Assembly: GCA_964456565.1 (NCBI GenBank)
Contig: CAYWBU010000001.1
Location: 22,827 to 86,826, forward strand
DNA from: an uncultured Bacteriovoracaceae bacterium
GTDB taxonomy: Bacteria; Desulfobacterota; Desulfomonilia; UBA1062
Reading direction: 5' to 3'
DNA length: 64,000 bases
Below are positions 3,138 to 36,124 of the stretch, in pieces (the first letter of the stretch is position 1; every line of letters begins with the position of its first letter). The position numbers and the translations under genes were made by a program. Under the pieces are notes generated by a model that saw only the letters and a list, made by a program, of their open reading frames with translations, was not told where the DNA came from and searched no databases.

Positions 3138-3675
3138 TGATGAGCCCGTTATTTTGGCCGGTGTCGGAGCAGACCTGCTTTCACAGGGATATGATGTAAC
3201 CAGGGCCGAGGGCGGGGAGCAGGCCTGCCGGCTTCTGGACAGGGAAAGCTTCGACGTGGTGATCACCGACCTCATCATGGAGGAAGTCGGCGGAATGCAG
3301 GTGCTTGAAAAGGCCAAGGCCAAGGATTCCTCCTGTATGGTGATGATCCTGACGGGCTATGGCGACATGTCATCAGCCATAGATGCCCTGCGACTCTCGG
3401 CCGATGATTATCTCCTGAAACCCTGCGATCCCGAAGAAATGCATTTCAGGGTGGAGCGCTGTATCAAGGCCATTGAAATGCGGCGCCGGATCAAGACCTA
3501 TGAGAATATAATTGCGGTCTGCTGCGTCTGCGGCAAGATCCGTGATGATGTCGGCTGTGACCATGGCAAGGGCGACTGGCTTTCGGTTGAGCAGTACCTC
3601 TGGCGCCGCGCCATGGTTGCCCCGTCGTCGACATACTGTCCGGAATGTGCCCGGATGGCCGAGCAAAATCTTTGA
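3109..3675 (+). CDS. response regulator, REC domain plus C-terminal CxC...CPxC zinc-ribbon-like tail
   Basis: RILLVDDEP...VVITDLIMEE...ILTGYGD...LLKP form a REC domain. The tail is CCVCGKIRDDVGCDHGKGDWLSVEQYLW...YCPECAR. A GGAGG RBS sits in front of the ATG at 3109. The 5' end overlaps the 3' end of the kinase. Confidence 0.75.
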   Translation: MRRYRILLVDDEPVILAGVGADLLSQGYDVTRAEGGEQACRLLDRESFDVVITDLIMEEVGGMQVLEKAKAKDSSCMVMILTGYGDMSSAIDALRLSADDYLLKPCDPEEMHFRVERCIKAIEMRRRIKTYENIIAVCCVCGKIRDDVGCDHGKGDWLSVEQYLWRRAMVAPSSTYCPECARMAEQNL

Positions 3676-4806
3676 TCAGGCCTTAGGCTTAAGGCCTGAC
3701 CTGATCCAGTGACCAATAATCCTGAAAGGCCCCTGGAGTCCGCTGCCCATGAGTTGGGCGTAGCTTTTGCGCCCGCTGATGACGTCAATGTAGGCCGCGG
3801 CGATCTTGGGACTTGCCTCCAGGGCAGCAAATGATGGTGCGGGAAGGCCAGAAATGAAGCGCCCGAGGGTGGCGGCCTTTTTGAGGTCTCCCAGAAGATT
3901 GTTTGCGATTGCGCGCTCATAGGTTTGAGCCGGATTGGCGCCGGTGACAGCCTGTCCGGCGGCCGCGCCGCTGAACATCGCCTGATAAAGACCTTCGCCG
4001 GTAATGGGATCCACCAGGTGGGCGGCATCACCGCAGAACAGGACCCGTCCCTTTGTAAGCCGCTTGTTGCCGCTGAATACCGCCAGGGGAAATCCGTGGG
4101 CCGCACTGTAGGCCAGGTTTTCAATTTCCAGGAAGTTCCTGTAGTATGACCTGATCCGGCCGGCATGTCGGCGGCTGGTGCCGATCCCGACCGAGGCATG
4201 ATCCCCTTTGGGAAAGATCCAGCCGTAGCCGTCAGGGACAGAGCCGAAATTAAAGATGATGCTCTGGTCAATGCGTTCCCAGGGCACCACCGTTTCAAGA
4301 CAAAGGGCCTGGCAGTAGCGGTCATCGGGCAGCAGCTGGCGCCTCGCGATGCTGTTGGGTCCGTCAGCTGCGATAATCCAGGGGGCCTTGAGGACCTCGT
4401 TGGTTTTGCCACTGACGGTTTCAATCCTGCCGCTTTCCTGATCCACTGCAACAACCCTGGTGGAGTCGCGGAAAACAGCGCCGGCCGCGATGGCTGTCTG
4501 CAAAAGATGATAGTCTAGATCGCGCCTTTCGAACATGTACACACAGGGCTGCGGGCTGCTGGCCAGGCAGGTGCGTCCGGTATCCCTGAAGGAAATCCTG
4601 CACTGGGAGACCGCGTTCATTGAAAGTTTGAGGGTGCCTTGCGGCAGCAGCGGCAGGGCTTTGGCTGTCAGTCCGCCGGCGCACAACTTGTCCCGCGGAA
4701 AACTGGCCTTGTCCAGCAGCAGGACCTTGAGGCCCCGGCTGGCGGCGGTTCGGGCGGCGGTTGAGCCTGCCGGACCGGCCCCGATGACGATCAGATCGAA
4801 ATTCAT
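3676..4806 (-). CDS. geranylgeranyl reductase family FAD-dependent oxidoreductase
   Basis: N-terminal dinucleotide fold MNFDLIVIGAGPAGSTAA...LLLDK and a CAGGL motif. The ATG at 4806 is preferred over the upstream TTG. Confidence 0.7.
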   Translation of the reverse strand: MNFDLIVIGAGPAGSTAARTAASRGLKVLLLDKASFPRDKLCAGGLTAKALPLLPQGTLKLSMNAVSQCRISFRDTGRTCLASSPQPCVYMFERRDLDYHLLQTAIAAGAVFRDSTRVVAVDQESGRIETVSGKTNEVLKAPWIIAADGPNSIARRQLLPDDRYCQALCLETVVPWERIDQSIIFNFGSVPDGYGWIFPKGDHASVGIGTSRRHAGRIRSYYRNFLEIENLAYSAAHGFPLAVFSGNKRLTKGRVLFCGDAAHLVDPITGEGLYQAMFSGAAAGQAVTGANPAQTYERAIANNLLGDLKKAATLGRFISGLPAPSFAALEASPKIAAAYIDVISGRKSYAQLMGSGLQGPFRIIGHWIRSGLKPKA

Positions 4807-4973
4807 GATATGGCTGCTCCCCAATCCATATATGGCTCCTAAGCCAAATTCCGTCGCTGTGTCAACCGCCTGGGATATTTTTCGTTTACACGGATGGCGG
4901 ATAGATGTTATTCAGCTCACAGAAATTTTGCCTTATAAGATATTGAATTGGGGCACAGTTATGGAGGAGTTTC

Positions 4974-5423
4974 ATGTCGGACGGACTTGACGTAATTATC
5001 ATCGATGATGAAAAAAATGTGTGCGATGTGCTGGCTTCAATCGTGAAGAAATTTTATACATGGGGTGATGTCATTACCTTCAATGATGTCGACGATGCCA
5101 TTGCCTATTGCATCAGCAACAGCGAATCCATCTGTATTTTCATTCTGGATGTGTTTGTAGGACATGAGAACGGTTTTTATTTCCTGGATGCAATCGAGGA
5201 AAAATTTCCCTCGGCCCGTGAGGATACTATCATGGTGACCGGGAATGCCAGTGACCAGGTGGTGGATATGTGTGTAGCCTCAGGCGTCAATCATCTGCTG
5301 GAGAAACCGGTCAAACCCTATGCCCTGCAGCTGGCTGTCAGGTCCATTGTCACCAAATATCTCAACTTTGCCAAAAAACTGCTGCAGGATCCCGCCTTCG
5401 CGGAGAATGTATCAAAGTTCTGA
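4974..5423 (+). CDS. stand-alone receiver (CheY-like) domain protein
   Basis: VIIIDDE...IFILDVFVG...IMVTG...LLEKP retains the DD, D, T and K positions of a REC domain. Confidence 0.65.
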   Translation: MSDGLDVIIIDDEKNVCDVLASIVKKFYTWGDVITFNDVDDAIAYCISNSESICIFILDVFVGHENGFYFLDAIEEKFPSAREDTIMVTGNASDQVVDMCVASGVNHLLEKPVKPYALQLAVRSIVTKYLNFAKKLLQDPAFAENVSKF

Positions 5424-5425
5424 CG

Positions 5426-5449
5426 GGCCGGTGTTGACCGGCCTTTTTT
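5426..5449 (+). terminator. rho-independent terminator (GGCCGG-loop-CCGGCC followed by T6)
   Basis: GC hairpin followed by TTTTTT, 3 nt after the stop of the REC gene. Confidence 0.5.
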
Positions 5450-5512
5450 ACTGCCTATTTCTGCCGGCCTGTATTATAATTCTGGGATTGTTATGATTTA
5501 GGGGAGGTCGTA

Positions 5513-6886
5513 ATGCAGATTGTTGTCATCAACGGAAGTCCCAAGGGTGATCTCAGCGTGACAATGCAGTATGTACGCTATGCCGCCAAGCTGAATCCCG
5601 AGCACGATTTTCGGATAATCAATGTTGCGCAGAAAATAAAGAAACTTGATAAAAGCCGCCCGGCCCTTGATGAGGTGCTGGCCGCAGTGGAGAGGGCCGA
5701 TGCCCTGTGGTGGGCAACCCCCGTCTATGTCTGTCTGGTCCCCTCGCAACTGAAGCGGTTTATTGAACTGGTTTTTGAAAAAAATCTGGAACATGTTTTT
5801 AAAGGCAAGCCTGCCGCGGTGCTGACGACCTCGATCCATTTCTATGACCATACGGCCCACAATTATCTCAATGCCGTTTGTGATGATCTTGGAATGCTGT
5901 ATGCGGGCGGGTTTGCGGCCGACATGTACGATGTGCTGGAGGAGGCCGGACAGTCACAGCTCAAGCAGTTTACGGCGGCCTTTATTGATAAGGTTGGTAC
6001 CGGTCAGGCCTGTCCGCGTAATTTCAGCCCGCTTCCCGCGTGCGGGATAGACTATGCGCCGGGTGTGCCGGAGAGGCAGTCTGAGACAAAAGGGCGCCGG
6101 ATAGTGATCCTGAGTGATGCCCGTGCGGATGATAACCTGGCCCGCATGGTTGATTTCTTTGCAGGCTGCTTCAGTGAGGCCCCGCAAATCTTTAATATCA
6201 ATGAGCTCGATATGCGCGGCGGCTGCATGGGCTGCATCAAGTGCGGCTTTGATAATCGCTGTGCCTGGGAAGGTAAAGACGGCTTCATTGATTTCTATCG
6301 CAATACCCTGCTGCCGGCCGAGGCCGTCATCTTTGCCGGAAAGGTTCATGACCGTTTTTTGTCGGCCCGCTGGAAGATGTTTTTTGACCGGTCTTTTTTT
6401 AATACCCACACTCCGACCCTGGGCGGCAAGCAGCTGGGGTGTATAATCAGCGGCCCTTTGTCGCAGCTGGCTGATCTAAGGCAGATCATGCAGGCCTACG
6501 CCGAATGGCAGCAGACCGGCCACAACGGATTTGTCAGCGATGAATATGAAACTTCTGCCGAGATCGACCGGCAGCTGGTCTCCATGGCCGCCAGGGTAAC
6601 ATCAGGAATGGAATCCGGCTATGTCGCTCCGAGATCTTTTCTGGGAGTTGCCGGCCACAAGATCTTCCGGGATGATATCTGGGGACGCCTGAGGTTTGTC
6701 TTCCAGGCTGACCATCATTACTATGCGGAGCATGGAATGTATGACGATTTTCCCCAGAATGATGCCCGGGCCGCCAAGCTGAACAAGATGATGTTTGAGC
6801 TCACGGCCGACCCGGCTATGCGCGAGGCGGTGCGCAAGGCCATCAAGACTGAGATGATTAAACCCTATCGGAAGCTTTTTGCGTAG
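5513..6886 (+). CDS. tandem flavodoxin-fold NAD(P)H-dependent FMN reductase / iron-sulfur flavoprotein (Isf)-like protein
   Basis: First domain MQIVVINGSPKG. Second domain RIVILSDARADD with a compact CMGCIKCGFDNRC motif (CX2CX2CX5C), typical of Isf 4Fe-4S flavoproteins. Confidence 0.65.
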   Translation: MQIVVINGSPKGDLSVTMQYVRYAAKLNPEHDFRIINVAQKIKKLDKSRPALDEVLAAVERADALWWATPVYVCLVPSQLKRFIELVFEKNLEHVFKGKPAAVLTTSIHFYDHTAHNYLNAVCDDLGMLYAGGFAADMYDVLEEAGQSQLKQFTAAFIDKVGTGQACPRNFSPLPACGIDYAPGVPERQSETKGRRIVILSDARADDNLARMVDFFAGCFSEAPQIFNINELDMRGGCMGCIKCGFDNRCAWEGKDGFIDFYRNTLLPAEAVIFAGKVHDRFLSARWKMFFDRSFFNTHTPTLGGKQLGCIISGPLSQLADLRQIMQAYAEWQQTGHNGFVSDEYETSAEIDRQLVSMAARVTSGMESGYVAPRSFLGVAGHKIFRDDIWGRLRFVFQADHHYYAEHGMYDDFPQNDARAAKLNKMMFELTADPAMREAVRKAIKTEMIKPYRKLFA

Positions 6887-6900
6887 CAGCTCGGCTGCCT

Positions 6901-7575
6901 TCAGGCATCCGTCCCGGTGGGCCGCTGTTTCTTGTTGTGATCTTTTTCGTCGGGGAAGGCCTTGATTTCGGGCACACTCTTGTGATGGACTTCCGGGCGG
7001 CAGAATTTGTCGGGATACTTGCCTTTGATTTGGGCATAGAACCCCTTGAGCTTGTCCATGTCGGCATCAATGTCCCCGGTGGGTCTGATCAGCGGGCCAA
7101 TGCCGCCGGTCTTGCGGGAATAGTCGAGAAAACCGCAGACAATCGGAACGCCGGCACCATTGGCGATATGGTAGAAACCGGTCTTCCAGTAATGGGTGTC
7201 TCCCCGGGTGCCTTCGGGCGGTATTATGATAACCAGCTTTTCAGCCTTGTTGAATTCGTCGATGGTGGCATCCACCATGTTGTTTGATTTGCTGCGGTCG
7301 ACCGGGATGCCGCCCAGCCATTTCATTATGCCGCCAAAGGGGAAACGGAAGAGTTCCTTCTTGCCTACCCAGTAAACCCTGGCCCTCAGGACAAAGGCGT
7401 GGAACATCATAATCGGCATATCCCAGTTGGTTGTGTGCGGGGCCGCGATCATGACGCATTTGGGGTCGGAGGGCATTCCCCCTACGGTCTCCCAGCCGAA
7501 TAATTTTGTATAAGCCTTTGATATTCCGTAACAGATCTCCCGGATAACCGGGGTATCAAATATTGTTTTATGCAT
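6901..7575 (-). CDS. lysophospholipid (1-acyl-glycerol-3-phosphate) acyltransferase family protein
   Basis: HX4D motif PHTTNWD and PEGTR motif, as in the PlsC/LPLAT superfamily. Confidence 0.7.
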   Translation of the reverse strand: MHKTIFDTPVIREICYGISKAYTKLFGWETVGGMPSDPKCVMIAAPHTTNWDMPIMMFHAFVLRARVYWVGKKELFRFPFGGIMKWLGGIPVDRSKSNNMVDATIDEFNKAEKLVIIIPPEGTRGDTHYWKTGFYHIANGAGVPIVCGFLDYSRKTGGIGPLIRPTGDIDADMDKLKGFYAQIKGKYPDKFCRPEVHHKSVPEIKAFPDEKDHNKKQRPTGTDA

Positions 7576-21931: not shown

Positions 21932-21954
<23 letters not shown>

Positions 21955-24412
21955 TCTCCTGTTCCATCTGCTTCATGGCGTCTTCATTGATGACGGCATA
22001 TTCCTCATCCAGCAGGCCCTTGGACCTGAATGTATCAAGGGCACCTTTATAGGTCGGCATGCACAGCGATTCGGCGCGGGTTATCTGTCCGCGTTTGTAC
22101 ATCCGGGACGCATAGCGGTTTATGATTTTCAGGATATCCTTGTTGTTCTTACGCGAAAGTTTTTTAACGTTCTGGGCCACCGCCAGATATGATTCCAGAT
22201 AATTTTCGATCAGCCCGGCAAACATCAGGGCATGGTCCTTCTTGTTCTTCCCGACCATGTAATTACCTTCGATCCGCAGGGCGATCCCGGTTTTGAGCAT
22301 GAATTTCATGGCCGTCTGGAAGGCCTCCATGTCCATGATAAATTCCTTTTCGAGGATCAGGGCCAGGGTCTGGACCTCTTTGACAAAAAGTTTTTCCTCG
22401 ATCCCGTCCGGATAGCGCACCAGCACATTGGCAATCAGCGCAGCGGGCACAAAGAAATTGAGTGTGGTATTTTTATAATATTCAAGGTGAATGCGTTTGT
22501 CGGCTTCAACCAGGTAGATATCGGCCTCATCATCGGCCTCCACCCGGTCGATGGTGACCAGGCCCTTGTCGATCATAAGTTTGATGGTGTCATCAAAGGC
22601 ATGGTCGTCATCGGTAAGCGAGGAGGCAATGTTGTAACCGCTCTGGCGAATATATTTGAGATAGAGCTTGAAGAAAGTGCGGGTGGCATTTTCATCCAGG
22701 GCCTCGGTGCGGGATATCAGAACCGATGAGAGGACTGCAAACGGCGTTGCAACCGTCTGCTTGTAGATGGAATCGATCAGTTTGCCGGCCAGATCGTCAT
22801 AGAGGTAATGGCGTTCATCCTGGTTCATCTGGGAGTAGTTCGGCCGGCCGCGCATGTAGCCGTTCAGAGAGATGGGAGGTGCAAAGCGGACATAGACCTT
22901 GCCGTAGCGGTTTTTGAGGATCTTGCCGGCCTTGAGCAGCTGCCAGAAATTTTCCTTCTCCTTTTCGGCCCCTTTCATCTCCCGGATGTAGGCCCCTTCT
23001 TCGACCACCGTATCATAGCCGACATAGACCGGGACAAAATGCACATCCCGGGTTATACCGGATTCCCAGCCCTGCACAATCATTGAGAGCAGTCCCTTTT
23101 TGGGCAGCATCAGCTTGCCGGAGCGGCTGCGGGTGCCTTCGATGAAAAATTCCATCGGGATCCTTTCTCCCAGGATGGTGCGGATATAGGCTGAGAAGGC
23201 CTGGGCATAGAGGGGGTCATTCTTGAAGGTGCGGCGCATGAAAAAGGCCCCGCCGCGGCGCAGGAGCCAGCCCATGGGGAAGAAGGCCAGATTGATGCCG
23301 GCGGCTATCAGCGGGATGCTCATCCAGTTATGAAAGAGACAGTATGACAGCACCAGATAATCGATATGGCTCTTGTGGCAGGGAACATATACGATCTAAC
23401 CCTTGCGGGCCACGTCCCTGACCATCTTGAGTCCTTCGTCGTCAACATCCATGCCGTCATAGATGTTGTCAAAGATCCATGTCAGCACGATATTCAGGAA
23501 ATTGACCGTTGACGGCTGCATGTCGGCCGCCACCTGGTTGAGCGCCTTTTCCACATTGCGGCTGATTTTATCCGGGGCCAGGCCGTTGTCGGTGGCATGT
23601 GACCGCATAAAGGTCTGCAGCACCGGGTCCTTGATGGTCTTCTGGATAATGAAATCGCGGCTGCGGAAGGGGGCCCCGGAGATATTGCTGCCGAGACTGG
23701 AGAGCCTGAAGAGCAGTTCGCGTCTTATTTCATGGGCAGTTTCCTCAATAAACTTCGACCAGCCCTGGGTGTGTTTGACCACCTCCATAAGGTTGATGGG
23801 TTCACCGTGCTCGATAAAACCCAGTTCCTCTTTTTTGAAGAGGGTCAGCAGTTTCTTGCCGGGCCTGAGCTGCATCTTTTCCTCATGTGAGGCCTTACGC
23901 ACCTTGATGGGCATGCGTGAATAAATCAGACGCTGCGGCAGGATGTAGATCGGCTTGTCGATCTCCTTCTGCAGTTTGAGCAACAGCAGGATGGGGTCCT
24001 GCTCGAAGTTTTCCGGTTTCTTGTCAATAAAGATCAGTGAGGCGGTCCGGTCCTGCTGCATATATTCGATGTATTGCCGGTGAATGTCCTCCCTGGCGGG
24101 CGGTGAAAAAAGATTCTTGACCATCGCCGGCAACCGGCGCACCGGTTCCAGCAGGGGGAACTGCTTGCCGAAAATCAATCCCGGAGCCGGCAGTTCGTCC
24201 TGCCTGAAGCGGTAGTTGAGCAACAGGGTGTCAATGGAGCTGCGGGAATTGAGGGCGTAGACGATATGACCCTTTTCCGAAAGCGAAACGGTTGATTCCC
24301 GATAGATGCCGGGAATATTCATATGTCCGAAAAGCCGGTGAAAGATCGGTCGCAAAAGCGGACCGTAAAATCCATTCAGCAGATAAGCCTCTGCAGCGCT
24401 GCCTTTTTTCAT
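21932..24412 (-). pseudogene. plsB: glycerol-3-phosphate 1-O-acyltransferase PlsB homologue, interrupted by one in-frame TAG at 23396-23398
   Basis: ORFs 23396..24412 and 21932..23353 are in the same frame. Translation through the TAG gives ...[27 protein letters not shown]..., where [10 protein letters not shown] is the PlsB HX4D catalytic motif. FIEGTRSRSGKL (block III) lies downstream. Confidence 0.75.
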
Positions 24413-28928: not shown

Positions 28929-28951
28929 GGCCGCCGGGTTACCCGGCGGCC
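28929..28951. terminator. bidirectional rho-independent terminator between convergent hppA and the DUF374 gene
   Basis: AAAAAAGGCCGCCGGGT-T-ACCCGGCGGCCTTTTTT: perfect 11-bp GC stem flanked by an A-run and a T-run. Confidence 0.65.
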
Positions 28952-29673
28952 TTTTTTATTTTGCGGGGCAGATAATCCATAAAGTCATCAGGCACGGGCA
29001 GGTCGCGCGGATCGCCCTCACGGATGCCGTTCTTGACAAAATAACGCACCTGGTAGGTGAGCCGGTTGAGCCGCAGGTCGATCTCCTGCCGCAGTTCATC
29101 TGTTGCGGCATCGGACATTTCAGGGGCGACCAGGATGGGTTCACGGTCAAAGACCATGACGATTCGGGAAAACGGTTTGGCCAGGACGGTGCGGTCCCAT
29201 GAATTGAACTCCCAGCTGCGATCGGCCTCCATGGCGCAGAGCAGGATGGGGCTGCCGGTGCGCCCGGCAATGGTGGTTATGCCATGCTTGGATATATAGG
29301 GTGGCCCGGTGGGACCATCCGGAGTGATGACGCCGGGATAGCCGGATGCAAGGTGGTCGCAGAATTCATGGAGGGCCTCCTTGCCGCCGCGGCGCGATGA
29401 TCCGCGTTGGGGCCTGAACCCGTAGCGCTCAATCAGGGCGGTGATCATGTCGCCATCGCGCGAAGCCGAGATGATGCCGCCCATATTGCGATCGCGGAAA
29501 TGATAACTGGCAAAGGGAAAGATGCGGTGCCATGAGGTGTAGATGATGTCGCCGCGCTGGGTCAGGACTTCCTCTTCATTCTCCAGGCCGTAGACTTCAA
29601 TGCGGCAGCTGGCATAAATACTGCGCAGCAACACGTCGGCCGTCAGGGCTATGATTTTATTTTTTATCTCCAT
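28939..29673 (-). CDS. DUF374-type lysophospholipid acyltransferase-like protein
   Basis: About 240 aa with an LPLAT-like core (YTSWHRIFP...ISASRDGD). The C-terminal codons KKAAG lie inside the terminator stem. Confidence 0.55.
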
Positions 29674-29704: not shown

Positions 29705-29731
29705 GTCAATAAATGAAAAGGCGACCCGTCG
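29705..29731 (-). terminator. rho-independent terminator downstream of the radical SAM gene
   Basis: AAAAGGCGACCC-GTCG-GGGTCGCCTTT hairpin, 38 nt after the radical SAM stop, followed by a T-rich stretch on the minus strand. Confidence 0.45.
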
Positions 29732-29768
29732 GGGTCGCCTTTGTTGCAGAGATGAAAAACAGTTGTTC

Positions 29769-31418
29769 TCAGACAGCCGCGTTACTGGGAATGTCCTTGG
29801 ATGTACCGGCGGAATCCACGGGCGTTTTTTCAGGTTTTTCTTCTGCCAGCTGGATGTGACGCTCCTTGTCGGTTCCGTAATTTTTATTGATGTATTCCAG
29901 TGACTCCAGCATGCTCCTGACGAAATTGGGATTCTTCTCGGCCCATTTCTGCATCTGTTCCAGAAACCTGGGCCGGTTGAGCTGGAATTCGATGCGGTCA
30001 ATGCCTTCGCCGTAGGCCTTTTTCTGGCTCCGCATACTGTTGATCTTGTGCTGGTACTGTTCCAGCCAGAGTTTGTCGGCAATCTTGGCGACACTGGCAG
30101 AGTAGCGGTCGATACCGTCCTTGATCTGCTGATTGGAGATGAGTTCCTCGGCCCCGGGTTCGGTCGGGCGGGCACCGAAACGGGTACAGGCGCTGCGCCA
30201 TACTTCCGGATTATCGATAATCATGCAGGGCCGGAGATAGTTGTCGGTATGGGGCTGGCTCATGCGGATATAGGTGAAAAACGGCGACTGCAGGGCCTCG
30301 ATCAGGCTGCAGTTGTGGATGTTGTGGGTGGCGTGATGGGCGAAGATGCAGGGCTCCACATCACCCTTGCTGTTGATGTGCAGATATCTGCGTCCGCCGG
30401 CAATGCAGCCGGAAAGCGCCGGCGCATCGGCCCAGAAATCCATGATGAAAAGGGGTTCCTGTTCGCGGTAGCGCTTGATGAATTCGCCGAATTCAACCCG
30501 CTGCTCAGCGGTTGGCATGAGGCTGAGGTCCGGCTGCGGACCTACGGGCATGAAGAGGAAATTCCAGCCGTAGACCACCCCCTGATTTTCCCAGAATTTA
30601 AGGAAATCACGGGAAACAAGGGTTTCAAAGTTTTTGGAAGTCAGAACCAGCGACATCCCGAAGAGCAGATTGCGCTGACGCATTTTGGCAACAGATTCGA
30701 GCACCTTGTCATAGGCGCCTTCACCGCGCATGAAATCGGTGTCTTCACGGGTCCCGTTGACACTGAAAGCCACGATTATATTGGCTGCATCTTCGATCCG
30801 GTCGGCAACCTCATCGGTGATCAGGGTGCCATTGGTGAATACCTGGAAGAGGCAGTCGTTGTGCTTCTTGGCCATGGCATAGATGTCATCAAATTTTACA
30901 AAAGGTTCGCCGCCCAGGATGGTGTAGAAGTAGACGCCGATCTGTTTGCCTTCGGCTATGATGCGGTCGAAGGTCTCAACGGACATATCGTCATCTTTTT
31001 TCTGGGAATATTCGGCGGCATAACAGCCGCGGCAATGCAGGTTGCAGCGCATTGTGGGGCTGATGAGGATGTTGTAGGGCGGGACAAAGCCATATTCATC
31101 GGCAAAGCTGTCGGCGGTCTGCATCCATTTGATGGCGCAGTTGCCGATGAAGTTACGGACAAAAACCCTGGCCTGCCTGGGGTTGCGGGAAAGCAGGTTG
31201 GCAAACCACTGTTTGGCGCCGGGATTCTGCTGCGTCCATGCCATAAAGCTCTGTAAAGGGCCGTCATCACCGTGGAAGATGTCCAGGGCGCTCAGACGCT
31301 TGAGGGCCTTGTCGATATTTTTTTGGGGATCTTTCTGCATGTAACGCACGATCCAATCAGCTGTTGTGACAATTGTGGCCTGAATTGATTTATTTTTGAT
31401 GGTATCCAGAATGCCCAT
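29769..31418 (-). CDS. radical SAM / SPASM-type enzyme with about 100-aa N-terminal extension and charged C-terminal tail
   Basis: CNLHCRGCYA (CX3CX2C), GGEPF, SVNG, and C-terminal CIAGG...VEPCIF...C auxiliary-cluster region. AGGAGG RBS in front of the ATG at 31418. Confidence 0.75.
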   Translation of the reverse strand: MGILDTIKNKSIQATIVTTADWIVRYMQKDPQKNIDKALKRLSALDIFHGDDGPLQSFMAWTQQNPGAKQWFANLLSRNPRQARVFVRNFIGNCAIKWMQTADSFADEYGFVPPYNILISPTMRCNLHCRGCYAAEYSQKKDDDMSVETFDRIIAEGKQIGVYFYTILGGEPFVKFDDIYAMAKKHNDCLFQVFTNGTLITDEVADRIEDAANIIVAFSVNGTREDTDFMRGEGAYDKVLESVAKMRQRNLLFGMSLVLTSKNFETLVSRDFLKFWENQGVVYGWNFLFMPVGPQPDLSLMPTAEQRVEFGEFIKRYREQEPLFIMDFWADAPALSGCIAGGRRYLHINSKGDVEPCIFAHHATHNIHNCSLIEALQSPFFTYIRMSQPHTDNYLRPCMIIDNPEVWRSACTRFGARPTEPGAEELISNQQIKDGIDRYSASVAKIADKLWLEQYQHKINSMRSQKKAYGEGIDRIEFQLNRPRFLEQMQKWAEKNPNFVRSMLESLEYINKNYGTDKERHIQLAEEKPEKTPVDSAGTSKDIPSNAAV

Positions 31419-31567
31419 GTGCGTAACCTCCTTGCTAGAGAAGTTTAGTAATCCCATAGACACCAATTTGCAAGCATTTTTTGTGCACTGCATAAAAGAT
31501 GTCCCGATAAAGTCTATCGTACAGGTATGAAAGGTGTCAGCTTTGCGCTTTTACGGAGCAGGCAGAT

Positions 31568-31807
31568 GTGCTAATGATTTTTGCCATGCTGGATAAAATA
31601 CCTTTTTTGCACAGAGATACTGCCTACAATATCATCATTGAAGATGACATCTCCTTTGATGCCCTGCATGCCCTGCTGGACAACCTTGGCGAACAGGGGG
31701 CCTTTGATGCGCAGGAGTGTAGCGCCGACCTCTATTATTTCACCTACGGCGGCATCAATTATACCGTGGGGGTTGACGGGCAGGATGTGTTGATTGTGAT
31801 TAAGTGA
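31568..31807 (+). CDS. small hypothetical protein, divergent from the radical SAM gene (start 31568 or 31586)
   Basis: 73-79 aa with an acidic N-terminal half and a Tyr/Gly-rich C-terminal segment (DLYYFTYGGINYTVGVDGQD). No recognisable domain. Confidence 0.35.
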   Translation: MLMIFAMLDKIPFLHRDTAYNIIIEDDISFDALHALLDNLGEQGAFDAQECSADLYYFTYGGINYTVGVDGQDVLIVIK

Positions 31808-31823
31808 TAATAATGAGCAGGAA

Positions 31824-32633
31824 ATGATTGATATCCATTTATGCCAGCCCGATGGCTGCAAGTCGTGCGGGGCATGCTGCGGGCTGTATAATTATGTTGA
31901 AAATTCCAGGCCGGCCCTGACCGAAAGGCTGCGGAACCGGACCCGGCTTTTTACCGGAGTCAGACGCGGGGACATTGAGCTTGACGCCTATCAGGAGGCC
32001 CTGCGGCACCGGGAAGATAACCGGCGGATCTATAAAACCATCTATACTTGCGAATTTGTGGGCTTTCTGGATGCCGATGAAAAACGGGTCGGCTGTATGC
32101 TGCACCCCATGGGCAATGATGGGATCGATCTGCGTGACCGAAGTTTTTACGGACAGGAAATCTGTGACGGGCATTTCTGTCCAAGCTACCAGAAGCTGGC
32201 ATCAAACGAGGCCCGGATCATGGTGGATGTTATCCAGGACTGGTATCTCTATGGCTGCGTGATAACCGACATCGATTTTGTCAGAGAGTTTTTCCGGATC
32301 GTGCAGGACTCTCTGGCCGAGACGCTCAAACCGCAGAAAGTTCTGGAATCAGAGCGGCTTGCCGCGATTATCCTGGAGTACTGCTCCCTGAAAACCAGCT
32401 GGCCCTATTGTGACAAGTCCCGCCCCCGTTTCGGTAAATATTTTTTTGTGGGTGAAGATTATGACATCGCCCGCATTGATTATGATAAAATTGGTGCAGA
32501 AAAGTCCCCATATGATAAAATTCTGTTGAGCCTGTCATCCATGTTTGATTCCGGCGCAGAGCTGGCGGCGGCAAATGCGGTGCTCACAGGGATTATTGAA
32601 AGGTTTGTCAGTGAATACAGAGAAATTGATTGA
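31824..32633 (+). CDS. YkgJ-family (CxxCxxCC) cysteine-cluster protein with C-terminal extension
   Basis: CKSCGACCG, then C...C...H..C and DGHFCP motifs as in UPF0153/YkgJ zinc- or iron-chelating domains. 16 nt after the small ORF. Confidence 0.55.
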   Translation: MIDIHLCQPDGCKSCGACCGLYNYVENSRPALTERLRNRTRLFTGVRRGDIELDAYQEALRHREDNRRIYKTIYTCEFVGFLDADEKRVGCMLHPMGNDGIDLRDRSFYGQEICDGHFCPSYQKLASNEARIMVDVIQDWYLYGCVITDIDFVREFFRIVQDSLAETLKPQKVLESERLAAIILEYCSLKTSWPYCDKSRPRFGKYFFVGEDYDIARIDYDKIGAEKSPYDKILLSLSSMFDSGAELAAANAVLTGIIERFVSEYREID

Positions 32634-33438
32634 TGATATTATCGGTCTGGCGCTGATGGAAGACGGCGCCGATGTGACATCCATGGCCATCTTCAGTCCT
32701 GAAGAGACAATCAGAAGTGTGCTGGTCGCCAAGGCGAGCGGAGTCATTGCCGGAGTGCGGATCGCCGAGCGGGTTTTTACGGCCGTCAATCAGCAGATTC
32801 ATATGGAAATCAGCAAAGATGACGGATCCGCCGTGAATCCCGGTGATGAGATTGCGGTGGTGACAGGTCCGGCCAGTGATGTGCTCAAGGCCGAGCGGGT
32901 TGCCCTCAATTTCATGCAGCGCATGTCGGGGATTGCTACCATCACGGCCGAATATGTCCGGCAGGTCAAAGGAACCGGTGCCCGGGTGCTGGATACCCGC
33001 AAGACCGTTCCGGGACTGCGGGTGCTTGATAAGATGGCCGTCCGGTCCGGTGGCGGACTGAATCACCGCATGGGGCTCTATGATATGGCCATGATCAAGG
33101 ATAACCATATTGATAATGCCGGTTCGATTGAAAGGGCGGTCGAGCTCCTCAGGCAGGCCAATCCGGATATCCCCCTGATCGTGGAGGCCCGTTCGATTGA
33201 TGACGTGCGGCGCCTGCTGGTCCTGAAAGTGGACCGGATCCTGCTCGATAATTTTGATACTGCGATGCTCAGGGAGGCGGTGGAGCTGGTTGCCGGTCGC
33301 ATTCCCCTGGAGGCGTCCGGCGGGATAAATCTGAAGACCATCCGGGGTGTGGCTGAAACCGGAGTCGATTATATCTCTGTTGGAGACCTGACCCACTCGG
33401 TCAAGGCCCTTGATATTTCAATGATTATTGGAGATTGA
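32611..33438 (+). CDS. nadC: nicotinate-nucleotide pyrophosphorylase (quinolinate phosphoribosyltransferase)
   Basis: LALMEDGADVTS...AGV...RVLDTRKT.PGLR..DK.AV..GGG.NHR..L.D...IKDNH. The start is ambiguous (GTG at 32611 or ATG at 32575) and overlaps the upstream gene. Confidence 0.8.
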   Translation: MNTEKLIDDIIGLALMEDGADVTSMAIFSPEETIRSVLVAKASGVIAGVRIAERVFTAVNQQIHMEISKDDGSAVNPGDEIAVVTGPASDVLKAERVALNFMQRMSGIATITAEYVRQVKGTGARVLDTRKTVPGLRVLDKMAVRSGGGLNHRMGLYDMAMIKDNHIDNAGSIERAVELLRQANPDIPLIVEARSIDDVRRLLVLKVDRILLDNFDTAMLREAVELVAGRIPLEASGGINLKTIRGVAETGVDYISVGDLTHSVKALDISMIIGD

Positions 33439-34475
33439 AAATGGACAAAAAGCAGGCCCGTGAAATTGTAATGCAGGCTAAGGCCGATCTGGGTGAGAGG
33501 CTGGTTATTCTGGGGCATCATTACCAGCACGATGATATCATTCAGGTGGTGGACTATGTCGGTGATTCACTTGAACTGGCACGTACCGTGCCCTATCTGG
33601 AACAGGCCGAGATTATTGTTTTCTGCGGTGTTTTCTTTATGGCTGAAACGGCCTCGATCCTGGCGCCGCAAAAGAGGGTGCTTATTCCCGACCGGAATGC
33701 CGGCTGTCCCATGGCGGACATGGCTCCCCTGGCCGAGGTGGCCCATGCCTGGGAATTCATCGCCGATGCTCCCGGCAGGACTGTTCCGGTGACCTATGTA
33801 AATTCCTCGGCCGAGATAAAGGCCTTCTGCGGTCGGCACGGCGGCACGGTATGCACCTCGGGCAATGCCGAAAAGGTCCTGAAATCCGTCATGCAGGAGG
33901 CCGACCGGGTCTTTTTCATGCCGGACAGGAATCTGGGCCGTAATACCGCCTGTAAGCTTGGCCTGGATGCCGCTGATATAGTCGAGTGGGATCCTGCGCA
34001 GACCTCCGGCGGACTCAGTGCCGATGACCTTGGCAGGGCCAGGATGGTCTTGTGGAAGGGCTGGTGTCCGGTGCACTGGCCGGCCTTGAGCGCTGATGAT
34101 GTGCGGGCAGTCCGCAGGGATCATCCCGGCATCCGCACCATTGTCCATCCCGAGGCCGATCCGGCAACAGTGGCCGAATGCGACCTCGCCGGCTCGACCG
34201 CTCAGATCCTGGAATTTGTCAAAGGACTCTCTCTGGGCGACAGAGTGGCGATCGGGACGGAATATAACATGGTTAACCGCATCGCTGATAATTTCCATGA
34301 GATTGTGCGCGTCCTGCCCATCCGCCAGGTTGAGTGCGATGGCATGGGCCGCATAACCCTTCCCAAACTGGCCGAATGCCTGCTGAATATCGATTCGGCC
34401 ACCAATGAGGTCAAGGTGGAAGATGGGGTTGCGGTTGAAGCCCTGCTGGCCCTTGACCGGATGCTGAGGATCTGA
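33435..34475 (+). CDS. nadA: quinolinate synthase
   Basis: ILGHHYQ...VDYVGDSLELAR...FCGVFFMAE motifs. ATGA overlap with nadC. Confidence 0.9.
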   Translation: MKMDKKQAREIVMQAKADLGERLVILGHHYQHDDIIQVVDYVGDSLELARTVPYLEQAEIIVFCGVFFMAETASILAPQKRVLIPDRNAGCPMADMAPLAEVAHAWEFIADAPGRTVPVTYVNSSAEIKAFCGRHGGTVCTSGNAEKVLKSVMQEADRVFFMPDRNLGRNTACKLGLDAADIVEWDPAQTSGGLSADDLGRARMVLWKGWCPVHWPALSADDVRAVRRDHPGIRTIVHPEADPATVAECDLAGSTAQILEFVKGLSLGDRVAIGTEYNMVNRIADNFHEIVRVLPIRQVECDGMGRITLPKLAECLLNIDSATNEVKVEDGVAVEALLALDRMLRI

Positions 34476-34477
34476 TC

Positions 34478-36124
34478 ATGCCCTCTAATATGCGTGAAAC
34501 CGACTGCCTTATTCTTGGAACCGGGATAGCCGGCAGCACCTGCGCCCTGGTGGCCGCCCGGGCCGGATTAAAGGTTACCATGGTCACCAAACGTTCGGAT
34601 CCGACCTACAACAACAGCAATCGGGCCCAGGGCGGAATCATCTACAAGGGCGAAAGCGACAGTGCCGAGCTGCTGGCCGCCGATATAATCAAGGCCGGCC
34701 GCAATGTGAATTCACGGGCCAGTGTTGAGTATCTGGCCGAGAACGGCCCCAGGGTTGTCAAGGAAATCCTGATCGATCAGCTCAAGGTCGGATTTACGCA
34801 TATCAGCGGAGCCGAAGAGGAGTCTTATGACCTGACCAGGGAGGGCGGCCATTCCATTAACCGGATTCTTTATGCCGCCGACCATACCGGGCAGGTGATC
34901 GAGCGCGCCCTGATCGATGAACTGCTCAAATATGAAAATGTTGAGATCATCACCCGGGCGACCGGCATTGACCTGATTACCCTGCAGCACCACTCCACCG
35001 ATGTTCAGGCCCACTATGAATTGAAGGACCGCTGTCTGGGAGCCTACGTCTTCATGCATGAGAGCAAGGAGGTTCAGACCATCAGGGCCCAGTATACGGT
35101 GCTGGCAACCGGTGGTCTCGGTGATCTCTATGTGCATTCCACCAATGAGAAGGGCACTGTCGGTGACGGGCTGGTAATGGCCCGGCGGGCCGGAGCCCGG
35201 GCCATCAACATGGAATATATGCAGTTCCATCCCACGACCCTGTATATCCCCGGTCAGCGGCGTTTCCTGATTTCGGAGGCCGTCCGGGGGGAGGGCGCCC
35301 GGCTCATGAATCTCAGGGGCGAATATTTCATGGAGAAGTACAACCCCAAGCTCAGGGATCTGGCACCCAGGGATGAGGTCACTGTGGCCATCTGGGAGGA
35401 GATGATCAATAACCAGGAAAAACATGTGCTGCTGGATGCGGCCAACCATGTCAAGGAAGACCTGGTGCAGCGTTTTCCCAGTATCTACCGTACCTGTCTC
35501 AACAACGGGATCGATATTACCAAAGAACCTATTCCGGTGGTGCCGGCCGCCCATTATTTCTGCGGGGGGGTCCATGTGGATACCCGCGGGCGTTCCACGC
35601 TCAACGGACTGTATGCCGTTGGCGAGGTTTCCTGCACCGGTCTGCATGGCGCCAACCGGCTGGCCTCGACATCCCTGCTGGCAGGACTTACCCGGGGATG
35701 TTCTGCGGCCCGTGACCTTACCGCGCGGATCAACTCCGGTGATACGGTGAATGTCGGCACATTGAAGGCTGTGCGCGACTGGATCACCACCGGGAATGTG
35801 GAAAACGAGGACCCGGCCCTGATTGCCCAGGACTGGATGCAGGTCAAGGCCACCATGTGGAATTATGTGGGAATCGTCAGGACTCTGCCGCGTCTGCGGC
35901 GGGCCATTGCCGATCTGCGCAACATGTATATCCGGATTGAGGATTTCTACCGGGAGACGCCGGTGTCCAAGGACATTATCAGCCTGTTCCATGGCACCCA
36001 GGCCGCCATTCTGGTTGCGGAAGCGGCTTTTCGAAATCCCAATTCGCTGGGATGCCACAATGTGCGCGCCGCGGCCCGTGATTCGAAAAAATCTTTTCCG
36101 GCCATGCGGTCATATAAATATTAG
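34478..36124 (+). CDS. nadB: L-aspartate oxidase
   Basis: DCLILGTGIAGSTCAL FAD fold, followed by fumarate reductase/succinate dehydrogenase flavoprotein-like motifs (HYFCGG, EVSCTGLHGANRLASTSL). Confidence 0.9.
   Translation: MPSNMRETDCLILGTGIAGSTCALVAARAGLKVTMVTKRSDPTYNNSNRAQGGIIYKGESDSAELLAADIIKAGRNVNSRASVEYLAENGPRVVKEILIDQLKVGFTHISGAEEESYDLTREGGHSINRILYAADHTGQVIERALIDELLKYENVEIITRATGIDLITLQHHSTDVQAHYELKDRCLGAYVFMHESKEVQTIRAQYTVLATGGLGDLYVHSTNEKGTVGDGLVMARRAGARAINMEYMQFHPTTLYIPGQRRFLISEAVRGEGARLMNLRGEYFMEKYNPKLRDLAPRDEVTVAIWEEMINNQEKHVLLDAANHVKEDLVQRFPSIYRTCLNNGIDITKEPIPVVPAAHYFCGGVHVDTRGRSTLNGLYAVGEVSCTGLHGANRLASTSLLAGLTRGCSAARDLTARINSGDTVNVGTLKAVRDWITTGNVENEDPALIAQDWMQVKATMWNYVGIVRTLPRLRRAIADLRNMYIRIEDFYRETPVSKDIISLFHGTQAAILVAEAAFRNPNSLGCHNVRAAARDSKKSFPAMRSYKY

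Follow-up and report, generated by a model that had tools for sequence, protein, structure and literature searches.

Mss, the membrane-spanning lipid synthase, is one of two enzymes thought to underlie the membrane-spanning lipids of bacteria, including the branched glycerol dialkyl glycerol tetraethers (GDGTs). Expressed anaerobically in Escherichia coli, it forms diabolic or iso-diabolic acids by coupling two fatty-acid tails, and for this activity Mss by itself suffices. Two Mss enzymes have been assayed, Tmari_0825 (WP_004080829.1) of T. maritima and WP_129545148.1 of T. ethanolicus (Sahonero-Canavesi et al. 2022, PMC13159169). A cluster-assisted mechanism analogous to that of Tes, which according to a published statement is only remotely related to Mss, has been proposed for Mss. 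Here we describe a gene at 29769..31418 on the minus strand of a 64,000 nucleotide stretch of DNA (the window; contig CAYWBU010000001.1 of assembly GCA_964456565.1) from an uncultured Bacteriovoracaceae bacterium. The gene codes for a protein of the radical S-adenosylmethionine (SAM) type with 549 amino acids. An initial annotation had seen it as one part of a triad for cofactor maturation or for the maturation of a ribosomally synthesised and post-translationally modified peptide (RiPP), together with two divergent neighbours, a small open reading frame (ORF) and a cysteine-rich gene. Our results do not agree with the triad. The radical SAM gene appears to belong to the Mss family, and the two neighbours to a separate operon with nadC, nadA and nadB; taken as a whole, we find this reading of two independent units probable.

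The family membership was read from the sequence, like the gene structure and the synteny. There are about 3000 database relatives at E <= 1e-10, and they are 36–64% identical to the window protein over nearly its full length. They come from Thermodesulfobacteriota/'Deltaproteobacteria', Thermotogota, Dictyoglomus, Chloroflexota, Actinomycetota, Coprothermobacterota, Caldisericota, Armatimonadota, Clostridium/Clostridia and a few archaea, a host range that agrees with what has been reported for Mss. Among the best 120 matches of a database search seeded with the Dictyoglomus homologue there was no Thermotoga protein. In the AEM 2026 supplement the Mss homologue of Clostridium mobile is given as WP_216440291.1 and that of Clostridium sp. 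DSM 8431 as WP_090012020.1. By BLASTP the first is 38% identical over 468 amino acids (E 2e-120) and the second 37% identical (E 4e-120), both alignments running from residue 1 to about residue 465 of the window protein. An exact-sequence look-up showed that these two proteins are encoded at loci L075 and L079 of our neighbourhood sample. The identity to the listed Mss homologues is 37–50% across the full shared length.

Six conserved Mss blocks, including CNxxCxGC, GGE, DF and VEPC, are described in the preprint supplement, and we compared the residues of a 52-sequence alignment with this text description. The invariant and near-invariant columns fit all six blocks. Block I, CNxxCxGC, is present as C125-N126-L-H-C129-R-G131-C132, with C125 and C129 the same in every sequence and N126, G131 and C132 conserved to 90% or more. 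Block II, GGE with L/F/N, corresponds to G169 G170 E171 P172 F173, F191 and N196 (pattern GGEPF...F...N), and block III, which is N, S and G-rich with R, to N213 S219 G222 R231 G232 G234 (N, S, G, RG.G). For block IV, described with G, S, N, E, W, P, Q and R, the residues are G254 S256 N263 W285 P291 Q306 R307 (G.S..N..W..P..QR). Block V, described as DF, Y/H/N between glycines, VEPC and P/C/F, is seen as D327 F328, Y345 H347 N349 G352 and V354 E355 P356 C357 F359 (DF, Y.H.N..G, VEPC.F). The three prolines with C, V and A that are described for block VI are represented by P389 P397 C398 P404 (P...PC...P).

Some points weigh against an assignment to Mss. The link to the assayed WP_004080829.1 and WP_129545148.1 goes via the homologue lists and the block descriptions. 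The operational cut-off for Mss, E <= 1e-50 and an identity of at least 30%, refers to Tmari_0825 or WP_129545148.1; the values given above are those to the two listed Clostridium homologues. The window protein also belongs to a distinct clade, which has a longer C-terminal tail and in which some genomes carry two paralogues, so that its substrate or regiochemistry could differ. No Ger/PlsA-like or other dedicated gene for membrane-spanning lipids was found by Pfam among the roughly 50 larger ORFs of the window.

Pfam places Radical_SAM at residues 119–263 (E 4e-21), and the CX3CX2C core that had been noted from the start is C125/C129/C132. According to the AlphaFold2 model (pLDDT 91.8) and the alignment, the protein is predicted to have an N-terminal helical domain (residues 1–109), a radical SAM barrel (approximately 116–330), a region with C338/C357/C398, C-terminal helices (425–513) and a disordered tail (535–549). 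C338, C357 and C398 are the only invariant cysteines outside the radical SAM motif in the 52 sequences. C357 sits in GDVEPC, a GX4C motif, while H347 is invariant and H361 is kept in 50 of the sequences. The Pfam match to SPASM, at residues 338–398, is marginal, 23.3 bits as compared to a cutoff of 21.5. Since only three auxiliary cysteines are conserved, the C-terminal iron–sulphur region is best described as twitch-like, and of the SPASM/twitch-like region first proposed the full SPASM domain has to be given up. No NCBIfam model reached its cutoff for this protein, the best being NirJ with 80 bits against 515, and no transmembrane helix was predicted (the maximum 19-residue Kyte-Doolittle hydropathy was 1.19).

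The N-terminal end bears on the suggestion of a RiPP-like cassette, in which a radical SAM/SPASM enzyme would modify the 73 amino acid product of the small ORF with the help of the cysteine-rich protein. The best solved matches are generic SPASM/twitch enzymes, SuiB, SkfB and anSME (query-normalised TM-score about 0.43), and the nearest of them, SuiB and SkfB, are RiPP maturases, which would fit such a cassette, yet the identity is only 15–18%. Residues 1–109 form five helices and no strand in the model, and neither Pfam nor NCBIfam gave a match to PqqD or a RiPP recognition element (RRE). We thus rejected the idea that the N-terminus holds an RRE, the domain being all-helical with no β-sheet, and with three conserved auxiliary cysteines there is no full SPASM domain of the sort the cassette would call for. 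The segment of about 100 residues that had been taken for an N-terminal extension does exist, but it is no add-on; it is a family-wide helical domain that aligns from residue 1 with all family members.

The mss-like gene has its own signals for expression. A ribosome-binding site, AAGGAGG, can be read directly from the sequence at 31427..31433 (minus strand), 8 nt before the ATG, and straight after the stop there is an intrinsic-terminator-like hairpin with a T-run at 29717..29742 (minus strand), with 11 pairs of which 7 are G-C. Both had been pointed out in the initial annotation. The start matches the database entry (P0001, 549 amino acids) and the starts of all homologues, and an alternative ATG at 31493 lacks comparable support from a ribosome-binding site or from homologue starts. 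With the hairpin terminator directly after its stop codon, mss is monocistronic. The gap to the divergent small ORF on the plus strand is 149–167 bp, close to the 150 bp that had been given. Rfam showed no riboswitch or other RNA in this intergenic region, its sole match within the window being one tRNA, and a promoter scan gave counts not above those of shuffled sequence.

On the plus strand the small ORF is the first gene of an operon. Comparison with its orthologues puts the true start at the ATG at 31586, so that it spans 31586..31807 and codes for 73 amino acids beginning MLDKIPFLHR. It is followed after 16 nt by the gene of a Cys/His-rich protein of 269 amino acids (31824..32633), which overlaps the start of nadC, the gene for quinolinate phosphoribosyltransferase (32611..33438; TIGR00078, 297 bits against a cutoff of 198). 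The nadC start is probably a GTG, giving an overlap of about 23 nt. Then follows nadA (33435..34475), and nadB (34478..36124) completes the operon. The small protein is 55–63% identical over its whole length in nine other loci, and in a seven-sequence alignment 20 invariant residues are spread along the length. Such conservation is, to judge from the alignment, the pattern of a small folded protein and not that of a leader/core peptide.

The cysteine-rich protein carries the string C12-x2-C15-x2-C18-C19 and had been called YkgJ-type for this CxxCxxCC motif. The motif is there, but the resemblance to YkgJ goes no further. The residues invariant in the cysteine-rich family are H5, C7, C15, C18, C19, C76, C91, H94, C114, H117 and C119, that is, 8 Cys and 3 His, and the first cysteine of the string, C12, is not conserved. 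Pfam, the YkgJ model included, gave no match for the 34 family members in the alignment (E up to 10) or for 10 cluster representatives of more distant relation (E up to 1). Neither the small ORF nor the cysteine-rich protein had a match in Pfam, NCBIfam or the PDB sequences, and no solved fold was matched by the latter. At every locus examined the cysteine-rich gene was found directly upstream of a phosphoribosyltransferase gene, either nadC with overlapping start (Desulfomonilia-type) or hpt (Syntrophia-type). The Syntrophia-type loci have the cysteine-rich gene, then hpt and a Zn-ribbon/DUF3426 gene, and no small ORF, nadC or Mss.

Whether the two units are linked was judged from gene neighbourhoods. 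We sampled 80 Mss loci from species-representative genomes, and about 64 of them, with at least 1.2 kb of upstream sequence, were assessable. The pair of small ORF and cysteine-rich gene was upstream of mss in 6 of these, all closest relatives (60–64% identity). As the housekeeping neighbours nadC, nadA, hppA and pth are collinear in the same six, the adjacency is plain vertical synteny. From the other side, the operon of small ORF, cysteine-rich gene and nad genes was intact in 10 of 10 Desulfomonilia-type loci, and in three it had no Mss nearby. These three (L088, L089 and L090), found via the cysteine-rich protein, keep the 73 amino acid ORF, the cysteine-rich gene, nadC, nadA and nadB, and have no Mss within 6 kb. 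In L089 a DUF374 gene (3627-4355) adjoins the operon, and the slot held by mss in the window is taken by an unrelated protein of 415 amino acids (4475-5722) with no family match. Clustering of the neighbours of the 80 Mss loci revealed no partner gene common to the whole family; the recurrent ones, TetR regulators, response regulators and a patatin-like gene, are local to lineages. The neighbourhood conservation expected of a triad was thus not found. Because mss has its own ribosome-binding site and terminator, the pair occurs in few Mss loci and the operon is kept without Mss, there are two independent units, and the 'triad' comes down to a monocistronic mss lying next to the two leading genes of a nadCAB operon. 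The operon's place is in de novo NAD synthesis, and the radical SAM enzyme has no partner in it.

These observations also count in the case of the peptide cassette. The genes are divergently adjacent, at 149–167 bp, in the window and in the six related loci, as one would expect if they acted together. However, the small ORF is missing from about 58 of the 64 assessable family loci, and it is always found with the cysteine-rich gene and nadCAB, also in genomes whose locus has no Mss or that carry it in another place. It also has no leader/core layout and no core rich in Cys, Ser or Thr. We therefore regard RiPP maturation as most improbable here. A further possibility is that the radical SAM enzyme matures the cysteine-rich metalloprotein or NadA. 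The divergent genes share one intergenic region, the cysteine-rich protein has its eight invariant cysteines and three invariant histidines, and NadA is a [4Fe-4S] enzyme, all of which could speak for cofactor or cluster maturation. Against this, the cysteine-rich family has no adjacent Mss in 10 examined loci (L081–L090), Mss occurs without the cysteine-rich protein in dozens of phyla, and in E. coli it is active alone. The data at the level of loci point to no association between the Mss and cysteine-rich families, and a role in maturation seems very hard to credit.

With the Mss assignment preferred, the C-terminal end remains to be considered. Of the roughly 150 residues that had been described as a C-terminal tail, only the last 85 or so are specific, and these are confined to a 'long-tail' clade of Desulfomonilia/deltaproteobacterial sequences, metagenome-assembled genomes (MAGs) of Thermotogota, and Mesoaciditogales. 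The Mesoaciditogales are cultured members of the clade, and a literature search on diabolic acids in them gave nothing usable. It was possible to observe pairs of long-tail paralogues in three MAGs (L002 with L009, L003 with L010, and L001 with L026), and there are further loci of the second copy at L013, L017 and L038. In six loci this copy, of subclade B, is immediately followed by a patatin-like phospholipase gene, an arrangement that suggests a lipid-remodelling pair. Another member of the long-tail clade, P0027 at locus L011 of the MAG Deltaproteobacteria SL3-B22.2, has lost the CX3CX2C cysteines ('MRNNLSPRGKTAD') and is a pseudo-radical-SAM copy.

The long-tail clade could conceivably be an Mss paralogue whose function has diverged to a different radical lipid chemistry, for instance coupling of ether-linked or already-coupled chains, closure of a macrocycle, a cross-bridge as made by Gms, or attack at another carbon position. 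The clade is distinct and has its C-terminal helical extension of about 85 residues, three MAGs carry two long-tail copies, the second standing by the phospholipase gene in six loci, one member is without the CX3CX2C cysteines, and bacterial Gms homologues have been reported to co-occur with mss. On the other hand, the six Mss blocks are all kept, as are the three auxiliary cysteines, the identity to the listed Mss homologues is 37–50% over the full shared length, and scans with Pfam and NCBIfam detected no extra domain like the COG4001 of Gms. On balance we think such a divergence rather unlikely, and Mss-type coupling is taken as the basis for what follows.

We infer the catalytic activity, the role of the clusters and the product by transferring the mechanism of the two assayed Mss enzymes and of Tes to the window protein. 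The [4Fe-4S] cluster at C125/C129/C132 would reductively cleave SAM to a 5'-deoxyadenosyl radical, and this radical would take a hydrogen from the ω or ω-1 carbon of a fatty-acyl tail. This first radical is probably held or relayed by the one auxiliary cluster, which is twitch-like (C338/C357/C398, perhaps joined by H347 or H361), as has been proposed for Tes, and a second SAM turnover would act on a tail from the opposite leaflet. A C–C bond would then join both tails into a membrane-spanning diacid lipid of the (iso-)diabolic-acid type. The helices, those of the family-wide N-terminal domain as well as the clade-specific ones at the C-terminal end, are most likely facing the lipid or the membrane. 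Coupling at ω would give the iso-diabolic type and coupling at ω-1 the diabolic type, and the sequence would allow either.

Downstream of the mss terminator, on the minus strand and with its own start, there is a DUF374 (acyltransferase-like) gene at 28939..29673 (PF04028, 80 bits against a cutoff of 26.8, E 9e-23), as the initial annotation had it. This gene is not consistently linked to mss in the loci compared, and a functional pair of DUF374 and Mss was rejected for lack of linkage across genomes. A geranylgeranyl-reductase-like flavoprotein gene (3676..4824) and a PlsC-like acyltransferase gene (6901..7575), both on the minus strand, lie about 22–26 kb from mss. The acyltransferase neighbour and the reductase-like gene had been brought forward in favour of a lipid-modifying enzyme, but they give it no support, since neither proved to be linked to Mss across genomes. 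A plsB-like glycerol-3-phosphate acyltransferase gene (21932..24412, minus strand) is split by an in-frame TAG at 23396-23398 ('...VARKG*IVYVPCHKSHIDYL'), just before the HX4D catalytic motif, with both ORFs in the same frame; a pseudogene, recoding, or a mistake in assembly or sequencing could each account for it. The remaining window is chromosomal housekeeping, with uvrC, pth, hppA, obg, proB, proA, nadD, eno, secA, mutL, miaA, SufBD and others.

Branched GDGTs serve as proxies for palaeotemperature and pH, and their anaerobic source organisms are still debated. Another likely Mss carrier among the Thermodesulfobacteriota, here a Desulfomonilia-like one, extends the list of candidate producers, an incremental step since MAGs of Desulfobacterota were already reported to have Mss homologues. 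The outcome removes a false RiPP lead and ties the small ORF and the cysteine-rich gene to the nadCAB operon. What remains of interest is the long-tail clade, with its pairs of paralogues, and the orphan module of 73 amino acid and cysteine-rich proteins attached to nadCAB. These two proteins, the latter with its 8 Cys and 3 His, may form an undescribed module that is translationally coupled to nadC-nadA-nadB in Desulfomonilia-type bacteria. Such a module could serve the de novo NAD or nucleotide metabolism of strict anaerobes as a new accessory that depends on metal or Fe-S; it might, for instance, act with NadA/NadB in electron transfer or supply them with clusters. Alternatively, the long-tail Mss clade may perform another step of bacterial tetraether formation (branched GDGT-type) than the assayed Mss. 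Even taken jointly, these last ideas are speculative, and we put them forward tentatively.

How, then, does the locus compare with the systems described? With YkgJ/UPF0153 (PF03692) the 269 amino acid protein shares the N-terminal C-x2-C-x2-C-C string only; it has no hidden Markov model match and its conserved set of Cys and His differs. Of solved proteins, SuiB, SkfB, CteB and anSME match best, over the radical SAM barrel and over SPASM in its first half (C-x18-C, including GX4C), but, unlike these SPASM/twitch maturases, the window protein lacks an RRE and a full 7-Cys SPASM motif, and no precursor gene is conserved with it. Gms, the synthase of glycerol monoalkyl glycerol tetraethers, is reported to have a COG4001 domain and two SPASM auxiliary clusters; in the family of the window protein three auxiliary cysteines are conserved.

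Like Mss, Tes (GDGT-MAS, PDB 7TOL) is a radical SAM enzyme and links two lipid tails through a C(sp3)–C(sp3) bond. It has three [4Fe-4S] clusters and a rubredoxin-type site, whereas the family of the window protein has only the three conserved auxiliary cysteines. The family profile matches 7TOL with E 4e-8, over residues 88–229 only, which is the radical SAM core, in keeping with the published view of a remote relation, and among the 50 best Foldseek matches of the window protein Tes does not appear. Tes identity was rejected on these three counts, and Grs, the B12-dependent ring synthase, was rejected as well, the family being that of Mss. A lipid-modifying enzyme of the tetraether or ring-synthase type had been offered as the alternative to the triad, and it appears to have been right about the kind of enzyme and wrong about these two identities. 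The closest likeness is thus to Mss itself (PMC13159169). Compared by way of the listed homologues, the window protein falls into a separate clade, whose C-terminal end is extended by helices of about 85 residues, and it shares with Mss the CNxxCxGC motif and the six blocks, the stand-alone gene, the anaerobic host and the same phyletic spread.

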